Assembly: GCA_000402775.1 (NCBI GenBank)
Contig: AQSC01000059.1
Span: 4,257-68,256 of the forward strand
Reading direction: 5' to 3'
Length of the DNA: 64,000 bases
From: Euryarchaeota archaeon SCGC AAA252-I15
GTDB lineage: Archaea > Altiarchaeota > Altiarchaeia > IMC4 > SCGC-AAA252-I15
Positions 8,501-63,776 of this stretch are shown here, piece after piece (positions within the stretch are counted from its first letter, which is position 1; each line of letters begins with the position of its first letter). Made by a program: the position numbers and the translations under genes. Under the pieces are notes generated by a model. It had not been told where the DNA came from, did no database searches, and worked only from the letters and a program-made list of their open reading frames with translations.

Positions 8501-9280
8501 GGAAATATTTACGTGGCAGACACATTAAACCACAGAATACAAGTCTTCAATTCAACCAAAGGCCAAATAAAAACCCTCGGAGTATACGGCTTTGGGGAAA
8601 CGCAGTTCAGAGAACCAAAAGGGGTGGCAATAGACGAGGAAGACAAACTCTTTATCTCAGACACAGACAACAGCAGAATCCAAGTCTTCAGCCTCTGCTA
8701 CGTGTCGACCTCAAGCTCGACAACATCAACCATAACATCAACAACAACATCAACAACAACATCAACCACAACATCATCAACAACATCATCAACAACGTCG
8801 ACGACAACGACAACGTCAATCGTGAGAAAAGACGTGGCATTAAACGAAGTAATGCCTTACACTGGAGACGGGTCATATGACTGGGTTGAATTATACAATA
8901 GAGGGAATCTTGACGTTGACTTGAGTGGATGGAATATCGGGGACGCTCCCGGTGGCTCAGGAAACCTTTCAATATCCTCCGGTCTAATAAACGTTAGCGG
9001 ATTCTTTCTGTTAAACTTCTCAACAGCCGGATTCAACATAAATGCGAATCCGGGTGAAGAAGTCGTACTCTACAACGAGACCGGCCACCGCGTCGACAAC
9101 CTCACCCTCTGGGCTTGGACCAGCATCAATCAATCGTATATGCGCTCTCCAGATGGCTGGGGTGATTGGATACTATCAAGCGACGATAACCCACCCTCTC
9201 CCGGCGAACCCAATGCTATACCATTTACTGGGAACCTTGTAACTGGGTGGAATCTGATTTCAATACCCTTAATCCTTTGA
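2573..9280 (+). CDS. Giant (2235 aa) secreted, sequon-rich surface protein. Signal peptide, six DUF4350/ThuA-like modules, Ig-like domains, six-bladed NHL propeller, Ser/Thr linker, lamin-tail domain, short hydrophobic C-terminus.
   Basis: N-terminal KKLPLKAEFIWLISVSLLLFPTLCSAQP. Module ends recur (GYHGWKLFDRSVDWLL, GYHGWKLFDRSVEWLL, YHHGSTIFDRVIIWLL, ILDKAIYWIEG). NHL blades include ...IYVADTNNHRIQKF, IYVADTLNHRIQVF, LFISDTDNSRIQVF. The LTD-like segment reads LNEVMPY..DWVELYNRG..DLSGW...VVLYNETGHRVD. NxS/T sequons are very frequent. Confidence 0.9.
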   Translation: MQPKKLPLKAEFIWLISVSLLLFPTLCSAQPTDEPVAYEFSYIKFAMFYNGVNLSTIENMIKTYIEAKGAQQFTLFDNSTAVSSLEEYDVIIQIGNYLNTTQIDAIEDANGSLILIHEGLTNINTTRWGIEQVYPPENISNLSFMIGADSGPTRGYPVNSTFSILKTSAVSFNVTGSHTQNLINTNNSRAVVASKQQQVGGKTILIGFNLTSYHEIRILDKAIYWIEGKSPTVQQNSRYCLYECLSPTVCRSCSDAVVVIEDPSAVTPQENSSYYFIYIQHGDIVNKIEYSEFTLANLSETKLIVVPKENKITSQIPSLRSDNKSLMFVHQGAFEAWNDHFNGFASELVNKTNITNGDAIIVQNREYELTYGYPVSSHIYTQNESTRVLAEVPGFTTLVNTSDGSLLSYVNGSSKVVFYGFDPYASQSTQCMPMGYHGGVLYLRAVEWALGNLNVGLQQPNEITFIVYNNNVMGFYGCGNTLTLSENSTANRLTGRYESGTVSFIDLSLANATNYSATSVVISISSERVSSKISDWVSLNKSLLLLYEGAVDVNITLLGGSSENDFTSTGPGYIRGNVAGSISRGYPYNAYVHTQNDSVRYLTDTPGFSSIVNYGSKDILQSRESGNRIVAYGFDPYQADVDSTPLCLGYHGWKLFDRSVDWLLYSLNISAPQAKRIAIQFYGANESWYCDTGQESKARRRISGKEYGGGNVSSIDLSVADLTDYSNTELIIIGDSWRVTSMISGWKDGGKDLMFLMHATTDATNTFGGSSGIDLTNDTRVNLTSYAGSLGFITEGYSPTGIIESDFALGRTWADISGFAILGRNVDSNTILSSKHTLSSDTVVYTLNLTEYDSPCRGYHGWKLFDRSVEWLLGELTVPIPRIDRIGLVVNILYNETHQCLLGEEDVTFERIESLENVSLAGINTTTFEISTISTADFTDTEAVVITDSNINAVGTYYEQILNGYTKATAASNVLMFRTGMDRYRRDHNQTPCNNTMHYGSLYGRITTTNDQNRQGGRPPYGYPFNAKVQVHGDVMDACYWSNLPQDFFGFLKNDTESRVEWIGVGVPPASSMYTNKLAILGYRPYEAWLDNHDDTDNEYHHGSTIFDRVIIWLLGDPVVKDKTKDIVVMVYNKNNRLLSENVTLNWSIEAFNDERVSILDISDVLYYDTCGTSRFIPVKGDLVSGIVDHWSDQLRGIIFLGESLYDAAKGLSAFPEGKVDPLDDEYSYSIYGEVVNTSYPRIINLTLNSVWEITESSTGVYSIENMSFLNVNYTPLILHANRSSGDEVILTVSNTSSQTGIALFGINTLSTTDKGKNWTLNAIEWSNPLDAIAPNVTSIDIQPYSYSPGDEIIFNVEIIDNRNWSVYYSTLNYSKNNVNWTLANLTHRVDPDSYTCESKPFMNDWNHSIGPFNESFIVYTISAVDTTGNKDATRIRYYGVEDNDPPEIANIGFTPYMPNSSDNVVINCDTNEFSNATVFYRIKGSSDAWTEVIQSEFKVFNHTINTGTHNASTSYEFWLELCDLSGNCGNETNGGIYYWFCIEPGCEKNPPNINNYTPANNTIFPPNTTNITLELSTDEWAECRYSNTSDNPYDLLEYVFNATHNTTNIAYLAIYSQSYYYIKCKDMLGNKHNDSLILYYWVDTVPPTVTLNNPQNFLTNRGSIVAFKYTPDDNGMVDRCAVYSNFGGWSIEVTESDITDGVQSETNGRLCDGTFIWNVKCWDSVNNSAFAVGNYTIIVNSTMPVLVIDTGEGSALGQLDQPEGLDIYQNRIYVADTNNHRIQKFSSTTGTYLSSFGGQGGGITNLYYPGDVAVGYIPYNRTVNETTNESEIINISVIYVADTQNLRGQIYYDFNNTWKQNISSQNPDDTQNPFYLDDPQGVAGYAERVFFSSTDRDKINVYNVTNLTSEFNISTGGLNRPQGVTTDGNKIYVSNTQNHNILIYNMYGTFLDSIGSFGSQPGQFNKPEDVATDSQGNIYVADTLNHRIQVFNSTKGQIKTLGVYGFGETQFREPKGVAIDEEDKLFISDTDNSRIQVFSLCYVSTSSSTTSTITSTTTSTTTSTTTSSTTSSTTSTTTTTSIVRKDVALNEVMPYTGDGSYDWVELYNRGNLDVDLSGWNIGDAPGGSGNLSISSGLINVSGFFLLNFSTAGFNINANPGEEVVLYNETGHRVDNLTLWAWTSINQSYMRSPDGWGDWILSSDDNPPSPGEPNAIPFTGNLVTGWNLISIPLIL
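8700..8820 (+). repeat. Tandem ACN/TCN codon repeats encoding the Ser/Thr linker of the giant protein
   Basis: acatcaacaacaacatcaacaacaacatcaaccacaacatcatcaacaaca..., translated as STSSSTTSTITSTTTSTTTSTTTSSTTSSTTSTTTTTS. Confidence 0.9.
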
Positions 9281-9318: not shown

Positions 9319-9822
9319 ATGCCTGACAATCGACCATCCTGGGATGATTATTTCATGAAGATTGTGTATACTGTGGCAGAACGGGCTACATGCGATCGTG
9401 GGAAAAATGGGTGTGTGATATCAAAGGACAAGAGAATTCTGGCAACCGGTTATGTTGGAGCGCCCGCAGGGCTTGCCCACTGCGATGAAGTAGGTCATCA
9501 AATGAAGACTGTGACGCATGAAGACGGCTCTACAAGCAGGCATTGTGTTAGGACTTGTCATGCTGAGGAAAACGCGATAGTCCATTCTGCGAAAGTCGGA
9601 GTCTCCGTGGATGGTGGGACTTTATACACAAAGATGATGCCTTGCTATTCATGCGCAAAGATGATCATAAATGCTGGTATAAGAAGGGTCGTGGCAGACA
9701 AGGATTATCATGCGTCTTCTGAGTCAAAAAAGATTTTAAATGAAGCAGGAGTCGAATATTCAATATTAAAACCTGAAGTCGAATGCTACGACGACCAGTG
9801 CATTGAAAAAAAATCCAAATGA
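9319..9822 (+). CDS. dCMP deaminase (cytidine/deoxycytidylate deaminase family)
   Basis: Zinc motifs HAEENAI and PCYSCAKMIINAGIRRVV. The ATG at 9319 avoids overlap with the giant ORF; the ORF-track start at 9247 overlaps it. Confidence 0.85.
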   Translation: MPDNRPSWDDYFMKIVYTVAERATCDRGKNGCVISKDKRILATGYVGAPAGLAHCDEVGHQMKTVTHEDGSTSRHCVRTCHAEENAIVHSAKVGVSVDGGTLYTKMMPCYSCAKMIINAGIRRVVADKDYHASSESKKILNEAGVEYSILKPEVECYDDQCIEKKSK

Positions 9823-29050: not shown

Positions 29051-29136
29051 GTTTACATGTTTTTATAAAATTTTGTAAACATTAATTCAGATTCCACCCA
29101 TATACGTCTTTTTTCACGTGTAAACTATTTACACGT
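29051..29136. terminator. Convergent-gene terminator region with two hairpins and a T-run
   Basis: GTTTACA(29051-57)/TGTAAAC(29074-80). ACGTGTAAA(29116-24)/TTTACACGT(29128-36) spans the cdc6 stop. An oligo-T run (tctttttt) lies just upstream of the second hairpin. Confidence 0.4.
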
Positions 29137-30255
29137 TTTAACATGATCTTGGATGTCTTGAGCCTTATACCGCAACACAATCTTCCTGCTCCTGCCCCGC
29201 TCTCCCTCAAGATGCACTGTATCAACAAGCTTTAAGTGCTCTAACTTTTTAACCATCTCATTATACTTTTTAATTCCAACACCCGTCTCCTCCTTGAATC
29301 TCTCATAGACGACTCCAGAAACCTCCTCGCCCGAAGACGCAAGGTATGAAAGCAGGCTCCTCTCAGTATCATCCAAACCTCTGATAGTATTCTTTAAAGC
29401 CAGCATCTGAGATCCCCCCCCAAAAGCCTCGTCAACCTGCTTTACGGTTATCTCGCGCTTGGCATCCCGCTCGGCGACCAACCCGCTCCGCCTTAAAAGA
29501 TCAATTCCAATACGCAAATCCCCAAGGGAAAAAGTCCTATCAACCATATAATCCAAAACCTTCCTAGACACAACTCCCTGATAATATGCATGTTTCACAC
29601 GCTCCGACAAAATCTCGAAAAGCTCGTCCCGAGTGTAAGGCTCAAAGAAAACACGTTCTGGGTTGAAAACACTCCTAGTCTTGTCGTCAAGCTTCGCCAT
29701 AAACCTCTCGTCGATCATGGCACCGAAAACACCTACCCTGTCAAAACCGTAAGTCGTATGTGCTTTTAAAAGATCCACGAGAATCTTGTCGACGTTTTTT
29801 TTGATGAACAGTTGATCCAATTCATCCAAGGCAACAATTAAACCCTTATCCTCCTTTAAAAGCTTCGAAAAAATCTTCTCCTTCACCGACTCAATGGGTT
29901 TACCAGTGTCCGGGGGACTCGTCCCGAAAAGCATTTCATGAATCCTCGCAAATACTGCGAAACGCGTGTTCGCGTCTTCACAGTTAATGTATACTGTGAC
30001 AATCTTTCCCGAAGCCTCGTTAGCCTGGTCGAAGAGGTGTTTTATTATGGTGGTCTTTCCGGTCCCTGGAGGGCCGTACACTAGTGTGTTTATGGGGTTT
30101 AGTCCTCGAAGGCCGGGTTTAAGGGCGTATGACAGTGCCTTGAGTTGTTCGTCACGGTGTTGTATGTTTTCGGGTACGTATCCGGGGGTTAAAACTTTTC
30201 CGTTTCTAAAGAGGGTTTCCTCGTCCAATAGTATGTCTTTTGCGTCCACTGTCAT
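29125..30255 (-). CDS. cdc6: Orc1/Cdc6 replication initiator
   Basis: Walker A VYGPPGTGKTT, Walker B LIVALDELD, C-terminal winged helix. Confidence 0.95.
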   Translation of the reverse strand: MTVDAKDILLDEETLFRNGKVLTPGYVPENIQHRDEQLKALSYALKPGLRGLNPINTLVYGPPGTGKTTIIKHLFDQANEASGKIVTVYINCEDANTRFAVFARIHEMLFGTSPPDTGKPIESVKEKIFSKLLKEDKGLIVALDELDQLFIKKNVDKILVDLLKAHTTYGFDRVGVFGAMIDERFMAKLDDKTRSVFNPERVFFEPYTRDELFEILSERVKHAYYQGVVSRKVLDYMVDRTFSLGDLRIGIDLLRRSGLVAERDAKREITVKQVDEAFGGGSQMLALKNTIRGLDDTERSLLSYLASSGEEVSGVVYERFKEETGVGIKKYNEMVKKLEHLKLVDTVHLEGERGRSRKIVLRYKAQDIQDHVKTCK

Positions 30256-30550: not shown

Positions 30551-31215
30551 ATGGAAAACATAGAAAAATCGCTTAAGGCACTTCAAGACGGCTCTTTCAT
30601 ACTCGTGCACGATTCCTCTGGGAGAGAAGACGAAACCGATCTTATAGTCGCCGCCGAAAAAATCACTCCAGCTCACGTACGCACGATGAGAAACGAGGGG
30701 GGAGGATTGATATGCACTGCCCTGGCAAAAGATTTAGCCGAAAAATTAAGTCTAGTCTTCATCCAAGACATATACCAAGCCGCAGCAAAATCCTTTCAAA
30801 TCCTCCCGGAACTTAAAGCCGACGACATACCCTACGACGAAAAATCATCTTTTTCCATAACCGTAAACCACAGGAAAACATTCACAGGAATAACCGACAC
30901 AGACAGGGCGCTCACCATACGGGAACTAGCCTACATCGCGAAAGCCGAGCCAAACCCACAGGCGTTTGGCTTGAATTTCCGAACACCCGGGCACATTCCA
31001 CTTCTTATCTCTTCAGGATTGGGCAAGCGGGAGGGACACACAGAACTTTCAATAGGACTTCTTGAGATGGCGGGGCTTACTCCAGTCTCCGTGGTTTGTG
31101 AGATGATGGACGATGAAACCTTCAAAGCCTTGACGGCGGAGAAGGCGAAGGCTTATGCAGAGAAAAACGGTCTAGTATTCCTTGAAGGATCTGAAATTCT
31201 AAATGCATATGAGAA

Positions 31216-31228
<13 letters not shown>
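30551..31228 (+). CDS. ribB: 3,4-dihydroxy-2-butanone-4-phosphate synthase
   Basis: VHDSSGREDETDLIVAAEKITPAHVRTMRNEGGGLICTAL and RTPGHIPLL. Confidence 0.9.
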
Positions 31229-32314
<1,086 letters not shown>

Positions 32315-47573: not shown

Positions 47574-47693
47574 TTTGTCATAATAATATGTCATTAATAC
47601 TCTAAAAAAATGACACGGCATCTTGAAAAATAACATTGTTCTAAAAATATATTAAAATATCATATTTTGTTCATTACAACCTTCGCAAGGATA

Positions 47694-47802
47694 CTGCGAC
47701 CTTTAGGTCGCAGAGGAATTGCGTACTATTTTTCCCCACCTTGTGTTTTCCTCCTCTGTTTTTAATGTATTACCAAAGCGGCGCCCCCCCAAAGGGGGGC
47801 GC
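47694..47802 (+). promoter_or_regulatory. Two perfect GC-rich hairpins in the lrp/LTD-gene intergenic region
   Basis: CTGCGACC-TTTA-GGTCGCAG (47694-47713) and GCGCCCCCC-CAAA-GGGGGGCGC (47781-47802). Confidence 0.5.
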
Positions 47803-47904
47803 AAAAAAACGCTGTCCAGATACTCTGAACAGCTACCGTGGTTGGGGTGTATCAACCCACTACCCTTAGGTAAATACCCAAAGGTAAAGGAGGAAAAGAT
47901 AAAA

Positions 47905-49246: not shown

Positions 49247-49259
49247 AAAGGGGTTTGTT

Positions 49260-49333
49260 GGGTCCGTCGAGATTTGAACTCGAGTTCCTAGCTCCCAAAG
49301 CTAGAAGGATGGGCCAAGCTACCCCACGGACCC
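49260..49333 (-). tRNA. tRNA-Pro (anticodon UGG), no intron, CCA not encoded
   Basis: Minus strand: GGGUCCG UG GGGU AGCUUGGCCC AUCC U(U) CUAGC UUUGGGA GCUAG GAAC UCGAG UUCAAAU CUCGA CGGACCC, folded as a cloverleaf by hand. Confidence 0.85.
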
Positions 49334-49417
49334 TTCCGTGTCATCGAGCCGTAGCGAAGATGGCACCCGCATGTCAACTGGGCGTGACAGTTGGGGGTCA
49401 AGCTACCCCACGGACCC
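49334..49417 (+). repeat. 65-nt two-hairpin insert plus a 19-nt duplicate of the tRNA-Pro 5' end
   Basis: caagctaccccacggaccc occurs at 49315-49333 and again at 49399-49417. Hairpins GTGTCATC/GATGGCAC (49338-66) and TCAACTG/CAGTTGG (49374-94) lie between. Confidence 0.8.
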
Positions 49418-50212: not shown

Positions 50213-50325
50213 TTGTTTTCGAGTTTTTTAAATCACAACAGGCAGCCCAAGGATTCGAGTTCACATTCCCCTTAAAAAAGTGAGAAGACACCCTGAAAAA
50301 AGGAAAGCTTTTTATAGTAGAGTGA

Positions 50326-50386
50326 GTAATTAGTTACTAGTTAGTTACTGATTAGTAAATAGTTATTAACTAATTAGTTACTAATA
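50326..50386. promoter_or_regulatory. Operator-like TTAGTTACT repeat cluster upstream of the RHH gene
   Basis: TTAGTTACT at 50331-39, 50342-50 and 50375-83, plus TTAGTAA/TAGTTATTAACTAAT variants, downstream of the TATA-like TTTTATAG (50311-18). Confidence 0.55.
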
Positions 50387-50434: not shown

Positions 50435-50599
50435 ATGAGCAAGTTGATAGGGATCCGAGTAAGCGCAGGGATAGACGACATCCTGGACGAGATCTCTGGG
50501 AAACTAGGAAAGAAGAAATCGGTCTTAGCGCGCGAGCTTATGGAGCAGCGACTCTTCGAGATGAGTTTGGTTTCCACGAAACTTAAGAAAACAATGTAA
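50435..50599 (+). CDS. Ribbon-helix-helix (CopG-like) protein, 54 aa (below the ORF-track cutoff)
   Basis: MSKLIGIRVSAGIDDILDEISGKLGKKKSVLARELMEQRLFEMSLVSTKLKKTM has a beta-strand/helix/helix pattern. It competes with the overlapping ORF-track frame 50398-50586. Confidence 0.6.
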   Translation: MSKLIGIRVSAGIDDILDEISGKLGKKKSVLARELMEQRLFEMSLVSTKLKKTM

Positions 50600-50893
50600 G
50601 GCTCACATCGCTTAGTTGTGTGTGATTCAGCCACATCACCCCAACCACCTGGTGTGCCCGCTCAGTAGGGGGGTGGGCACACCGCATGGGGGGTGGATGA
50701 ATTTCTAGGATTTCTAATTCAGGATTATCGAGCCGCGAAGCGGTGAAGATAGTCCATTTGATGAACCTTTAGTAAAGGTTCTGCGAAAGAGAGCTGAAAC
50801 CAACCTTTTTCTTTGTCGGAGTTTCCCGACGAGAAACCGCGAGTTAATTGAGGGGTCTTACCGACCCCCCGGTAACGCACATTATAGAAGTAT
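50600..50893 (+). repeat. 290-nt non-coding hairpin array containing relatives of all three gene-5' inserts
   Basis: Hairpins GGTGTGCCC/GGGCACACC (50651-83), GGATTATC/GATAGTCC (50722-55), GAACCTTT/AAAGGTTC (50763-81), a ...GTCGG/CCGAC... hairpin within the 50811-50835 stretch, and a GGGGTC-ttacc-GACCCC hairpin at about 50851-50867. No ORF. Confidence 0.75.
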
Positions 50894-51649
50894 TTATTCT
50901 GTTTTCACTATCCGCCAGAGTTTGGCGGGCGCTCCCGCTCCGCCGACTGCGTGGATGCTGGTTTTTAGTTCATAACCTTCAAATTTTTCCATGTGCTGCT
51001 GAACCACTCTGTCGAATTTTTCAGCAAATTCTTTTCCCTCCTGAAATTTCATCCCTATGAGAACGCTCGCGCCATTCGGATTGCATGTGCCGGAGACATT
51101 GAGTTTCTGAAGCATGAGCCTGGCTAATTCCTCACCAGAGCCAGCAGATGGGAAACGGCAAGTCATCTGGTCGAAATGAGAGTTAGGGTGCTTAAGTAGT
51201 ATTTCCCCGAGAGAACCTTGCTTGACTATCAGATTCTGGCCTTCTGAAGGAATCCCCAAACGAGCCCACTCCGCCTTACGATGCTGAAAACGCTCTGTCC
51301 AAGCGTGGTATGTATTGGCTGCAATGGCCACGTCTATTGCATCGCTTTGGGCGAGAAGACACGCAAGAGGAGTTAATGGGGCAACCCTTTTACTCGTTGG
51401 TTTGAAGTGGCGGGGAATAGGCCCGGTTATGGTTTGGTACCGCCTGCCGCTTGCTTCAATGTCAGGGCCGATACCAGTTCCGAATAACTCATCGACGTAG
51501 CCCCCGTAAGCCATCTGTCTCTGGATTCTCTTTTGCGGATCAGTGACACGGATTATTTCTTGTAGAACACGCATTGCTGGATTTACAGGTATGGACCCTA
51601 CACCGTGTTTTAGAGCCTGAGGTGTTTGATCATGTCTGTAGATTGGCAT
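50894..51649 (-). CDS. Hypothetical protein (251 aa)
   Basis: ATG ORF with elevated GC. No motif recognised. Confidence 0.55.
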   Translation of the reverse strand: MPIYRHDQTPQALKHGVGSIPVNPAMRVLQEIIRVTDPQKRIQRQMAYGGYVDELFGTGIGPDIEASGRRYQTITGPIPRHFKPTSKRVAPLTPLACLLAQSDAIDVAIAANTYHAWTERFQHRKAEWARLGIPSEGQNLIVKQGSLGEILLKHPNSHFDQMTCRFPSAGSGEELARLMLQKLNVSGTCNPNGASVLIGMKFQEGKEFAEKFDRVVQQHMEKFEGYELKTSIHAVGGAGAPAKLWRIVKTE

Positions 51650-54007: not shown

Positions 54008-54716
54008 TTATCTATTAATCTTTTCGGAAATCTTTCTGAAAACACCTATTAGAGTGAAAGCCTCCCTACCCGACACGAACGCCCTGCCTAAAAGACTTCG
54101 AAAAGTTTTTTTCGCAAGCCCCCTCTCATAATCCCCGACGTGAACGGAATCAATTACAGAATCATACTTTTCAATCAACACATCTTTTTCCACCTTGTTG
54201 AGTCTCCTAAACTTTTTCCGCTTGTGTAATTTTTTTTCAAACTCGCTTCTCTTAAGCTCATAGAGTATGATGGCTGCCGACTGAGCTATATTGAGTGTGG
54301 GATAACTCGGGTTTGCGGGAATGCAAACTAGCACATCACATGACTTGATTTCATAATTGTTTAAACCATGGTCTTCACGTCCAAACACCAGTCCGATTTT
54401 ACCTGAAGTCTTAAGGGATTCCTGAAGGTGTTCAGGGGTAACTGGGTTTCTCATACTGTTTTTATCAGTGGCTGATATCGCGGAAGTTGCAACAAGAAAA
54501 TCAAACTCATTTTTCACTTCCTTAAAGTTTTTGAAAACGCGGGCGTTTTCAAGGACGTCAATGGCATGCATGCTCATCTTCCTTGCTTCCCCCCCCAAGT
54601 TTTGGGGGGTTTACGAGAACCAATTCTTCGAAACCGAAGTTTTTCATGATGCGGGCGATAGAACCTATGTTCCCATCATACAAGGGTTCGACCAAGACTA
54701 CGGAGTATTCTGCCAT
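54008..54716 (-). pseudogene. SpoU/TrmJ-like RNA 2'-O-methyltransferase, reading frame broken in an 8-nt homopolymer
   Basis: N-terminal part [37 protein letters not shown] (frame a). Remainder [19 protein letters not shown]...GLVFGREDHGL...CIPANPSYPTLNIAQSAAIILYEL (frame b). The frames join if the C8 run at 54589-96 is 7 nt. Confidence 0.75.
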
Positions 54717-54784
54717 TTTATTAGGTATCGTCGAGCAAGCGGGAGCGAGCGAAGACGGCACATTTGTCGTCGGCAAACTCCGAC
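54717..54784 (+). repeat. 68-nt two-hairpin insert between the trmJ-like 5' copies
   Basis: GTATCGTC/GACGGCAC (54725-61) then ATTTG and GTCGG/CCGAC (54769-84). 54763-87 matches 50811-35 at 23/25 in reverse-complement orientation; the segment is near-palindromic. Confidence 0.75.
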
Positions 54785-54870
54785 AAACCGAAGTTTTTCA
54801 TGATTCGTGCGATAGAACCTATGTTCCCATCATACAAGGGTTCGACCAGGATGATTGAGTAATCCGCCAT
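54721..54870 (-). other. Decoy ORF: diverged duplicate of the first 28 codons of the trmJ-like gene fused to insert sequence (49 codons)
   Basis: [28 protein letters not shown] + [28 protein letters not shown] double stop ends 1 nt before the downstream ATG at 54716. Confidence 0.6.
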
Positions 54871-63566: not shown

Positions 63567-63776
63567 ATGGTAGCGAAAAAGAAAAAGACTGTGAAGAAAA
63601 AAGTTGTGAAGAAAAATCCGATGAAAAAAGTAGTGAAAAAGAAGGTAGTGAAAAAAGTAGTCAAGAAAAAAGTTGTGAAAAAGATGCCTGTGAAAAAAGT
63701 TGTGAAAAAAAAGACAGTAAAGAAAAAACCGGTTAAAAAAACAGTCAAGAAAAAAACGACGAAGAAGAAGAGATAA
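63567..63776 (+). CDS. Extremely Lys-rich repeat protein (histone-H1-like low-complexity, 69 aa)
   Basis: AAAGGAGGTGA SD lies 6 nt before the ATG. MVAKKKKTVKKKVVKKNPMKKVVKKKVVKKVVKKKVVKKMPVKKVVKKKTVKKKPVKKTVKKKTTKKKR. Confidence 0.65.
   Translation: MVAKKKKTVKKKVVKKNPMKKVVKKKVVKKVVKKKVVKKMPVKKVVKKKTVKKKPVKKTVKKKTTKKKR

Follow-up and report, generated by a model that had tools for sequence, protein, structure and literature searches.

A hairpin array between two converging genes of an altiarchaeotal archaeon contains relatives of small modules found at duplicated gene ends

In a 64-kb window of the genome of the uncultivated archaeon SCGC AAA252-I15 (the whole 64,000-nt stretch of contig AQSC01000059.1 that was analysed, and the sample of this genome considered here), the 294-nt gap between two converging open reading frames (ORFs), at positions 50600-50893, was found to contain an array of hairpins that have relatives elsewhere. 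The nearest named relatives of the window's proteins are labelled Candidatus Altiarchaeota. The array is interpreted here as three or more copies of lineage-specific two-hairpin modules that abut one another in mixed orientation, forming a nest in a harmless spacer between two gene 3' ends rather than a master gene, a reading whose chances we consider evenly balanced. Three parts of the array, namely the blocks termed b and d in a preliminary description of the sequence and a further stretch at 50839-50886, belong to hairpin families whose other members lie at the duplicated ends (first or last 20-90 nt) of ribC, ribH, a trmJ-like gene and tRNA-Pro in the window and in the genomes of five Altiarchaeota-like relatives. 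Among relatives, sites of this kind can be either filled or empty, differences between the duplicated copies are biased towards synonymous changes, and one hairpin of the modules, hp1, is paired in a strand-specific manner. The array and its two neighbours are composed as follows.

50435 to 50599, plus strand: 54-aa ORF, left neighbour of the array
50600 to 50632, plus strand: hairpin h0, directly after the stop codon of the 54-aa ORF; -10.4 kcal/mol on the plus strand, -6.3 on the minus strand
50634 to 50702, plus strand: U1 (block a), a long imperfect Y-like hairpin followed by the tail GCATGGGGGGTGGATGAAT; -43.1 kcal/mol on the plus strand, -36.1 on the minus strand
50703 to 50721, no strand: AT-rich spacer of about 20 nt in which, read directly, the tails of U1 (plus) and U2 (minus) meet
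50722 to 50755, plus strand: U2 hairpin Y, a member of hp1 by covariance model (block b); -19.1 kcal/mol on the plus strand, -10.8 on the minus strand
50756 to 50781, plus strand: U2 linker CATTTGAT (ATCAAATG on the minus strand) and hairpin X, GAACCTTTAGTAAAGGTTC
50782 to 50810, no strand: spacer between U2 and U3, holding block c, CAACCTTTTT (50801-10)
50811 to 50835, plus strand: U3 hairpin X (block d) with the core GTCGGAGTTTCCCGAC, an inverted relative of the trmJ-insert hairpin at 54763-87
50836 to 50886, plus strand: U3 linker, hairpin Y' (GGGGTC TTACC GACCCC, 50852-68) and tail; -17.5 kcal/mol on the minus strand, -15.2 on the plus strand
50894 to 51649, minus strand: 251-aa ORF, right neighbour of the array, with its stop codon at 50894-96

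Block b had been equated in the preliminary description with a two-hairpin module present at tRNA-Pro and the trmJ-like gene. The hp1 family is characterized by an outer stem of 8 bp whose fourth pair is U.G, by a GA/GAA internal loop and by a variable inner stem-loop, and block b fits this description. A covariance model (R1) was built from the tRNA-Pro, trmJ and L015 copies (L numbers denote the comparison sequences), leaving out the array copy, and was used in a filter-free search of the window. It matched 50720-50760 on the plus strand with 30.9 bits (E ~4e-7), the next-best match in the 64 kb reaching 12.8 bits, and the proposed identity of block b was thereby confirmed. Across five distinct hp1 copies 96% of cells were paired, four of the eight outer-stem pairs showed compensatory changes and the U.G pair was invariant. 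As the U.G wobble exists only on the plus strand, hp1 is a single-strand feature of that strand of the window; it lies antisense to the gene in both the trmJ and tRNA-Pro inserts. The strand-specific wobble together with the compensatory changes suggests that a folded single strand, either RNA or single-stranded DNA, is recognized, and the hairpins would accordingly act in single-stranded form as a recombination or recognition site. Matches to R1 were confined to duplication junctions or array-type places. The ribC hairpin was rejected as a member of hp1 with just 6.8 bits, a score because of which its link to hp1 is one of architecture. A kink-turn reading of hp1 was likewise discarded, since placing the GA/GAA loop in kink-turn register would break the 8-bp stem.

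Block d had been reported to match the reverse complement of 54763-87 at 23 of 25 positions. This count holds by eye, BLAST aligned 20/21 (E = 0.001), and a shuffle test gave p<0.001; the same hairpin is also present in the trmJ insert of L015. A further relationship that the preliminary description had not listed was found for 50839-50886, the relative of which is a module that L161 carries as an insertion at the ribH 3' end (p<0.001). A 49-nt alignment of this stretch with the reverse complement of the L161 module (2715-2788) scored 33 against a null of 14.2 +/- 2.0. U3 and the L161 module are oriented alike with respect to the adjacent stop codon, which in the case of U3 is that of the 251-aa gene, 7 nt beyond the end of the tail.

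The other two claimed resemblances fared less well, so that relatives of the gene-5' inserts are firmly present in the array as b and d, suggestively as a, and at chance level as c taken alone. Block a was said to parallel the 3' end of the ribC insert. The motif CACC-GCATG-(GGGG/A)-GGTGGATGAAT is indeed common to both, and U1, with its tail GCATG..GGTGGATGA, parallels the last hairpin and Shine-Dalgarno-like tail of that insert (31342-31387), where the tail GAGGTGGATGA (GAGGAGGATGA in L156) adjoins the ribC ATG as a ribosome-binding stretch. Local alignment against 1000 dinucleotide shuffles gave p ~0.009 for block a, which is only suggestive because it was one of six tests. Block c (50801-10) is, as claimed, an exact match to the first 10 nt of the ribC insert (31254-63), with E = 14, the chance level. 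The ribC inserts of three genomes (the window, L156 and L158) all open with this same CAACCTTTTT in conserved form, which may lend block c indirect support, and a related GAACC(C)TTTTC opens the ribH insert of L158 and L161, the L016 insert and an intron of L057. Many 10-11-mers shared by the array are at chance level. A 20-nt identity with the dCMP deaminase gene (9576-9595), made up of the array 11-mers 50748-58 and 50779-89 that are parted in the array by the X hairpin, was rejected as a relationship and is probably due to chance (shuffle p ~0.0125).

Read as a unit, U2 (50722-50781) is oriented on the minus strand, where hairpin X (GAACCTTTACTAAAGGTTC) is followed by the linker ATCAAATG and hp1, so that U1 (plus) and U2 (minus) abut tail to tail. 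The U2 linker and hairpin X resemble the first hairpin and ATCAAAAATG linker of the ribC inserts, and on the minus strand AAAGGTTCATCAAA of U2 corresponds to AAAGGTTGATCAAA of the L158 ribC insert at 13/14 positions.

The non-coding nature of the region, as stated in the preliminary description, was borne out. No gene was called between the 54-aa ORF and the 251-aa gene in any of 10 independent metagenome annotations of the identical sequence, and the ORF list of the gap holds a minus-strand 51-aa ORF (50725..50880), the start of a 70-aa ORF and nothing else. The reported hairpin richness was also confirmed, the count being six rather than five: 50600-32, 50634-50700 (core stem 50651-59/50675-83), 50722-55, 50763-81, 50808-36 and 50849-70. 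The whole region folds with -121.2 kcal/mol on the plus strand (z -6.4 versus shuffled sequence) and -104.3 kcal/mol on the minus strand (z -4.3); the left four hairpins are more stable on the plus strand and the rightmost (50840-78) is slightly more stable on the minus strand. An Rfam search over 50600-50893 gave zero matches at gathering thresholds and at E<=10, and the region did not prove to be a single known RNA family. In long inputs the fast filters of such searches can miss true matches: the tRNA-Pro gene at 49259-49333 was unlisted in the whole-window search at gathering thresholds and scored 50.9 bits (cut-off 29) within a 3.5-kb stretch. For the 54-aa ORF no Pfam match was obtained even at E<=10, and its earlier label as a ribbon-helix-helix (RHH) gene could not be verified. 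Upstream of this ORF (50320-50385) several words resembling TAGTTACT or TTAGTTAC are present as direct and inverted copies and could form an operator region.

Each gene-5' insert of the window was found to be flanked by a direct duplication of the gene start, a feature that the preliminary description did not mention and that is the key to the nature of the modules. The three sites are as follows.

31215 to 31423, plus strand: 5' site of ribC (riboflavin synthase), with copies at 31215-53 and 31385-423 (39 nt, 37/39) and a 131-nt insert of four hairpins
49311 to 49417, minus strand: 5' site of tRNA-Pro(UGG), with its first 23 nt present twice (22/23) and a 61-nt insert consisting of X and hp1
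54630 to 54870, minus strand: 5' site of the trmJ-like (SpoU) gene, with its first 87 nt present twice (last 64 nt 62/64) and a 68-nt insert consisting of X and hp1

All three have the same layout, in which the native promoter region is followed by a partial upstream copy, the insert and the intact gene. At trmJ the upstream copy is a 51-codon ORF that ends with TAATAA 1 nt before the real ATG, and at ribC the upstream ORF runs through the entire insert. Including those of relatives, all eight filled sites, in six genomes, have inserts of 61-206 nt with no gene fragment inside; the flanking repeats are 23, 39 and 87 nt long in the window and 17-36 nt in relatives. Two contigs of a 96%-identical reference metagenome-assembled genome (GCA_043823295.1) begin inside the duplications of trmJ (L011, 1-60) and ribC (L156, 1-170), and because they start exactly there, short-read assemblies are evidently broken by these repeats. 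The trmJ-like gene of the window is frameshifted at 54591-54609, where a run of eight G lies in a CCCCCC..GGGGGG hairpin. An intact 250-aa trmJ-like protein is called in other assemblies of this population and the 96% relative has CCCTCC..GGGAGGG, so the frameshift is likely a homopolymer error or variant.

Comparison with relatives revealed both filled and empty sites. The trmJ insert is present in the window, L011 (the 96%-identical reference) and L015 and is absent from L012, where the trmJ-like gene lies directly 3' of a conserved promoter. The ribC site is filled in the window, L156 and L158, the L158 insert being shorter and without two internal hairpins, and is empty in L157, L159, L160 and L161. 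At ribH a 5' insert with a duplicated gene start was found in L158 (1922-2132) and L161 (2140-2350). L161 alone has in addition a 3' insert (2682-2821) with a 33-nt duplication, the new stop codon deriving from the insert; this 3' site is empty in L158, a close relative of L161 (88% nucleotide identity in ribC). The tRNA-Pro(UGG) gene is a recurrent site. In L016 (5276-5583) nt -2 to +23 of tRNA-Pro (25 nt) are duplicated, with the same end point as in the window and a different, 206-nt insert, the first ~50 nt of which are homologous to a genuine 37/38 intron of the L057 tRNA-Pro. In L078 (21-245), which belongs to a GC-rich lineage, the duplication comprises 20 nt or more of the upstream flank and nt 1-37 of tRNA-Pro, ending at the intron position. 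A metagenome scan with 19 nt of the tRNA-Pro 5' end returned mostly unrelated archaeal tRNA-Pro genes, many with D-loop introns, L057 and L078 being the informative cases.

The duplicated copies differ from each other as orthologues would and do not resemble a fresh target-site duplication. Over all copy pairs approximately 24 synonymous codon differences were counted versus 8 conservative non-synonymous ones (partly by hand alignment), and both differences between the ribC copies are synonymous. In trmJ and ribH the first 15-30 nt of the copies are strongly diverged and the part adjacent to the insert is nearly identical. The ribH start displaced in L158 and L161 (MDKINLG) is similar to the ribH start of the insert-free L157, L159 and L160, and the working start (MKEKISLG), which is one codon longer, resembles the MTEKISLG of the window lineage. 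The mostly silent differences and the ribH starts indicate that the inserted piece brought its own version of the gene start and, in some cases, also a Shine-Dalgarno-like sequence and a TATA-like stretch.

A common plan was recognized in the inserts. Reading from the displaced remnant to the intact gene, hairpin X is followed by a CAAATG-like linker (GACAAATG, ATCAAATG or ATCAAAAATG), hairpin Y and a short tail abutting the gene, with hairpin Y being either hp1 or a GTGGGGT..ACCCCAC hairpin with a related loop. The tail is always towards the intact gene and hairpin X towards the displaced remnant. In the 3'-end module of L161 ribH the unit is flipped and its tail again lies against the gene, so that on the wobble-bearing strand the unit always runs 5' to 3' outward from the gene. 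Within the window all structured strands are on the plus strand, regardless of gene direction. Every insert site lies to the right of a Cdc6/Orc1 gene (29125-30255), and the non-coding 28.8-29.1 kb and 30.3-30.5 kb beside this gene could hold a replication origin. An origin to the left would put the structured strands on the lagging-strand template, a hint that derives from four sites.

The duplicated ends, the synonymous bias and, in one case, a working copy like that of another lineage make the modules look like the non-coding part of tiny cassettes that replace gene termini. Such a cassette would replace a gene terminus through recombination inside a conserved gene motif, and cassettes would be gained and lost among close relatives. 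A small circle carrying the conserved gene motif could integrate in the manner of Campbell, a single-stranded molecule with the motif at both ends could anneal, or larger integrated elements could collapse, the last route being disfavoured because the inserts are uniformly tiny. The copies in the array may have arrived, by analogy, through the same insertion process as the gene-end modules. U3 abuts the stop codon of the 251-aa gene exactly as its L161 homologue abuts the new ribH end, and insertions or leftovers would be harmless in a spacer between two 3' ends and so could accumulate there. The array is no simple template for the trmJ insert, since blocks b and d are in the opposite relative orientation to their partners in that insert.

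A number of observations weigh against this interpretation of the array. No duplicated gene end or flanking direct repeat was found in it, so that its origin by insertion is argued only by analogy, and neither an empty allele nor an excised form of the array came to light. The ten metagenome copies of the sequence are all 100% identical and hence provide no population evidence. In the window there is no integrase, transposase, reverse transcriptase or recombinase, and hp1 is present in three copies in the 64 kb and in none in ~20 kb from each of several relatives. No significant relative of h0 was found, and the membership of U1, at p ~0.009, appears weakly supported. As the simple X and Y' stems are generic, only matches that included flanks or passed the model were counted. 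Finally, U3 may be an old and possibly functional element of a 3' untranslated region (3'-UTR), because L012 has a similar hairpin, on the same strand, 3' of the orthologous 251-aa gene.

The surroundings of the array were compared with those in two related lineages, which share with the window the gene order histidinol dehydrogenase, fibrillarin, DNA ligase, HerA-like, SpoU, lysA, bPH and 251-aa gene. This order stops exactly at the array spacer. Beyond the break a C/D box sRNA and a PGM/PMM gene follow in the relatives, and the 54-aa ORF, AIM24 and tRNA-Pro in the window. Comparison of synteny at this junction had been put forward in the preliminary description, and in both related genomes that retain the 251-aa gene the spacer is a different one, which holds other members of the same hairpin types: in L012 a GTGGGGTC..GACCCCAC module homologous to the L161 module, and in L015 a T-rich/A-rich hairpin. 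No conserved homologue of the whole array region was found. The 251-aa protein has two homologues only, at ~50% identity, so no close relative of the spacer is available for comparison; relatives of AIM24 were not syntenic and gave no view of the spacer, L016 alone yielding the second tRNA-Pro duplication. The relatives' sRNA is of canonical form (GTGATGA-12 nt-CCGA ... TGTGACGA-12 nt-CTGA), is 90% conserved between L012 (10876-10934, minus strand) and L015 (5836-5892) and has no homologue in the window.

The hairpins could instead be native 3'-UTR structures of both converging genes, with a role in 3'-end formation, stability or protein binding, the left half serving the 54-aa ORF (plus) and the right hairpin the 251-aa gene (minus); the gene-5' inserts would then share only a functional type with them. 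The strand preferences fit such a role, the left hairpins folding better on the plus strand and 50840-78 on the minus strand, as does the GGGGTC..GACCCC hairpin of L012, which lies on the gene-sense strand 3' of the 251-aa orthologue, and GC-rich hairpins of this kind are common terminator-like features. However, a scan for terminator-like sites (a hairpin followed by a T run) found none inside 50600-50893. Bacterial-type terminators are not the rule in archaea. Most gene ends also lack such hairpins: in 175 kb of clade sequence the simple patterns of three of the four hairpin families occur almost only at duplication junctions or 3' of the 251-aa gene, the exceptions being two G-rich hairpins of a generic kind and a single match in L015 that covers the stem only. 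In the trmJ and tRNA-Pro inserts hp1 is antisense to the gene, which makes a 3'-UTR role impossible there, and the modules come and go between close relatives. We therefore regard a native 3'-UTR origin of the whole array as unlikely, although it is the alternative that survives best.

Alternatively, the spacer might be a scar left by a rearrangement or by a larger integrated element, in which case the 54-aa ORF, the TAGTTACT repeats and the hairpins would be remains beside an old attachment site and the hairpins would represent element termini. The end of shared gene order exactly at the 251-aa gene is in keeping with this, and the gene-end duplications follow the substitute-gene-end logic of integrative elements such as the dusA-specific islands (PMC4482086). 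The uniform length of 61-206 nt and the lack of any gene fragment at all eight filled sites in the six genomes are, however, unlike the random decay of large elements, and the window contains neither an integrase nor a direct repeat around the block of the 54-aa ORF. A scar of this type is accordingly considered improbable.

A discrete structured non-coding RNA gene on the plus strand, for example a degenerate C/D box sRNA interrupted by hairpins, was also considered. GGAUGA at 50695, UGAUGA at 50759 and CUGA at 50794 resemble the required boxes, with exactly 12 nt before CUGA once the X hairpin is removed; the plus strand gives the lower fold z of -6.4; the relatives carry their canonical C/D box sRNA in the corresponding spacer and on the corresponding strand; and the window contains fibrillarin and Nop5 genes. 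Against this, Rfam was empty at any threshold and the sub-blocks have independent relatives in opposite orientations. As a C/D box sRNA the candidate was rejected: UCUA would have to act as the D' box, its C box is imperfect, C' and D lie 29 nt apart, and it shares no sequence similarity with the relatives' sRNA. Such a gene is very improbable. The preliminary description had left open whether the region represents several abutting elements (an insertion hotspot) or a structured RNA gene from which the short inserts derive. The former is supported by our data and the latter is not, given the empty Rfam result, the end of shared gene order exactly at the array, the different spacers of relatives, the independent relatives of sub-blocks in opposite orientations and the differing strand preferences of the left and right parts.

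Chance likeness of GC-rich palindromes in a hairpin-rich spacer would account for block c and the many shared 10-11-mers, all at chance level, and perhaps for the marginal block a, simple stems being widespread in unrelated DNA, but it is refuted for b by E ~4e-7 and compensatory changes and for d and 50839-86 by p<0.001 each, flanks included, and as an explanation of the array it can be set aside with hardly any reservation. In unrelated viral contigs the GTGGGGTC..GACCCCAC (GGGGTC..GACCCC type) pattern was present in >120 and the AACCTTTTT..AAAAGGTT (AACCTTT.. type) pattern in 53. A viral origin was rejected: the block-d 23-mer and the tRNA-Pro 23-mer had 0 matches in the viral contigs, the simple-stem matches are generic hairpins, and the 15 viral-contig matches to the hp1 pattern were all coding-like and without stems.

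To return to the reading of the array as a nest of modules, a broader and decidedly tentative proposal is that these modules belong to an undescribed class of minimal (~60-200 nt), enzyme-less cassettes for gene-terminus replacement, each consisting of a hairpin pair and a substitute end of a housekeeping gene and spreading between archaeal lineages by recombination in conserved gene motifs. The array would then possibly serve as a landing pad, or as a depot in which hairpin ends of cassettes are kept, with a function like that of an integron cassette array. Small repeats in the Altiarchaeum lineage are not new in themselves; to our knowledge, it has not been described that hairpin modules of this sort are linked to homeologous duplication of gene termini. 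If the reading is correct, the array would be the densest local sample of a module family that reshapes the ends of essential genes (riboflavin synthesis, RNA methyltransferase, tRNA) in a little-studied archaeal lineage. The orthologue-like copies point to horizontal replacement of gene termini over tens of nucleotides, a mode of gene transfer normally observed with large integrating elements only. The duplications also have practical effects, as they create spurious short ORFs, mis-called gene starts and broken metagenome assemblies. The value of the array would be mainly that of a catalogue of modules, and it would also be a case for distinguishing action as RNA from action as single-stranded DNA.

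Further repetitive features were noted in the window. A second hairpin-rich spacer (47690-47870), between diverging AsnC-like and LTD-domain genes, contains CTGCGACCTTTAGGTCGCAG, GCGCCCCCCCAAAGGGGGGCGC, GCTGTCCAGATACTCTGAACAGC and GTTGGGGTGTATCAACCCAC, the last of which resembles the second hairpin of the L158 ribC insert. Coding tandem repeats are present near the window end (63580-63760; lysine-rich 27-nt units, GAAAAAAGTTGTGAAAAAG...) and inside a 2235-aa NHL/LTD protein (8720-8810; ACAACATCAAC-type units).

Of the known systems, archaeal bulge-helix-bulge (BHB) introns share with the tRNA-Pro inserts the ~50 nt common to L016 and the L057 37/38 intron, and the end points of the duplications (before ATCC in the D arm; 37/38 in L078) are known intron positions, whereas the array has no exon context. 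An intron reading was rejected, as a custom scan that detected the L057 control (h=5, h'=7) gave no convincing splice motif of the right length at any duplicated site. Integron attC sites also occur in clusters lacking an integron integrase (CALIN arrays), archaeal ones included (PMC9668308). These are, like the array, clusters of imperfect hairpins without a nearby enzyme gene, and in both one folded strand would be recognized. The array differs in lacking RYYYAAC / GTTRRRY boxes (AAC/GTT is confined to the outer end of the X hairpins and lacks the RYYY/RRRY extension), in its mixed orientation and in the absence of cassette ORFs, and integron insertion duplicates no gene end; with the required boxes missing from its hairpins, an attC reading was rejected.

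The modules at gene ends can be compared with elements that carry a substitute gene end when they integrate, as do phage 21 and e14 in icd. The dusA-specific genomic islands are integrative elements of this type (PMC4482086). In both cases the direct repeats correspond to the crossover region, the end supplied by the insert is joined to the gene body with mainly silent differences, and the displaced native end remains. Such repeats are present at ribC, ribH, trmJ and tRNA-Pro and absent from the array. Those elements, however, are 10-100 kb in size with an integrase, whereas the modules are 61-206 nt of hairpins without integrase or cargo genes, and one module family targets several genes. Genomes of Ca. 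Altiarchaeum have been reported to be the densest among archaea in MITE-like elements (MITEs are miniature inverted-repeat transposable elements), with 146 per Mb in Ca. Altiarchaeum hamiconexum (PMC11602168). The modules are likewise small, non-coding and non-autonomous, belong to the same phylum-level lineage and show filled and empty sites among relatives at ribC, trmJ and ribH (the array itself not included). They differ from MITEs in having no unit-level terminal inverted repeats or short target-site duplication of fixed length, their flanking repeats instead being 23-87 nt of gene terminus in copies that differ like orthologues.

Repetitive extragenic palindromic (REP) sequences and the bacterial interspersed mosaic elements (BIMEs) that they form are short, clustered, imperfect palindromes of bacteria (PMC3733652). 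The array differs from these in being archaeal and, on inspection of all its hairpins, in having no unpaired GTAG and CGTC only within the stem of the block-d type hairpin. In addition, hp1 is compound and has an internal loop, the number of copies appears to be low, no REP-associated tyrosine transposase (RAYT) was seen, and the modules elsewhere are tied to duplicated gene termini, whereas REPs are not; no HUH or Y1 transposase domain was found among the window ORFs. In both systems, however, there are short imperfect palindromes, several families per genome and close units in opposite orientation 3' of converging ORFs. The array hairpins, at 19-38 nt, agree with the definition of REPs as imperfect palindromes of 20-40 bp in alternating orientation, and in both the strand-specific wobble pairs suggest single-strand action. 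It is a bacterial BIME/REP cluster that the array resembles most, in form as well as in position.

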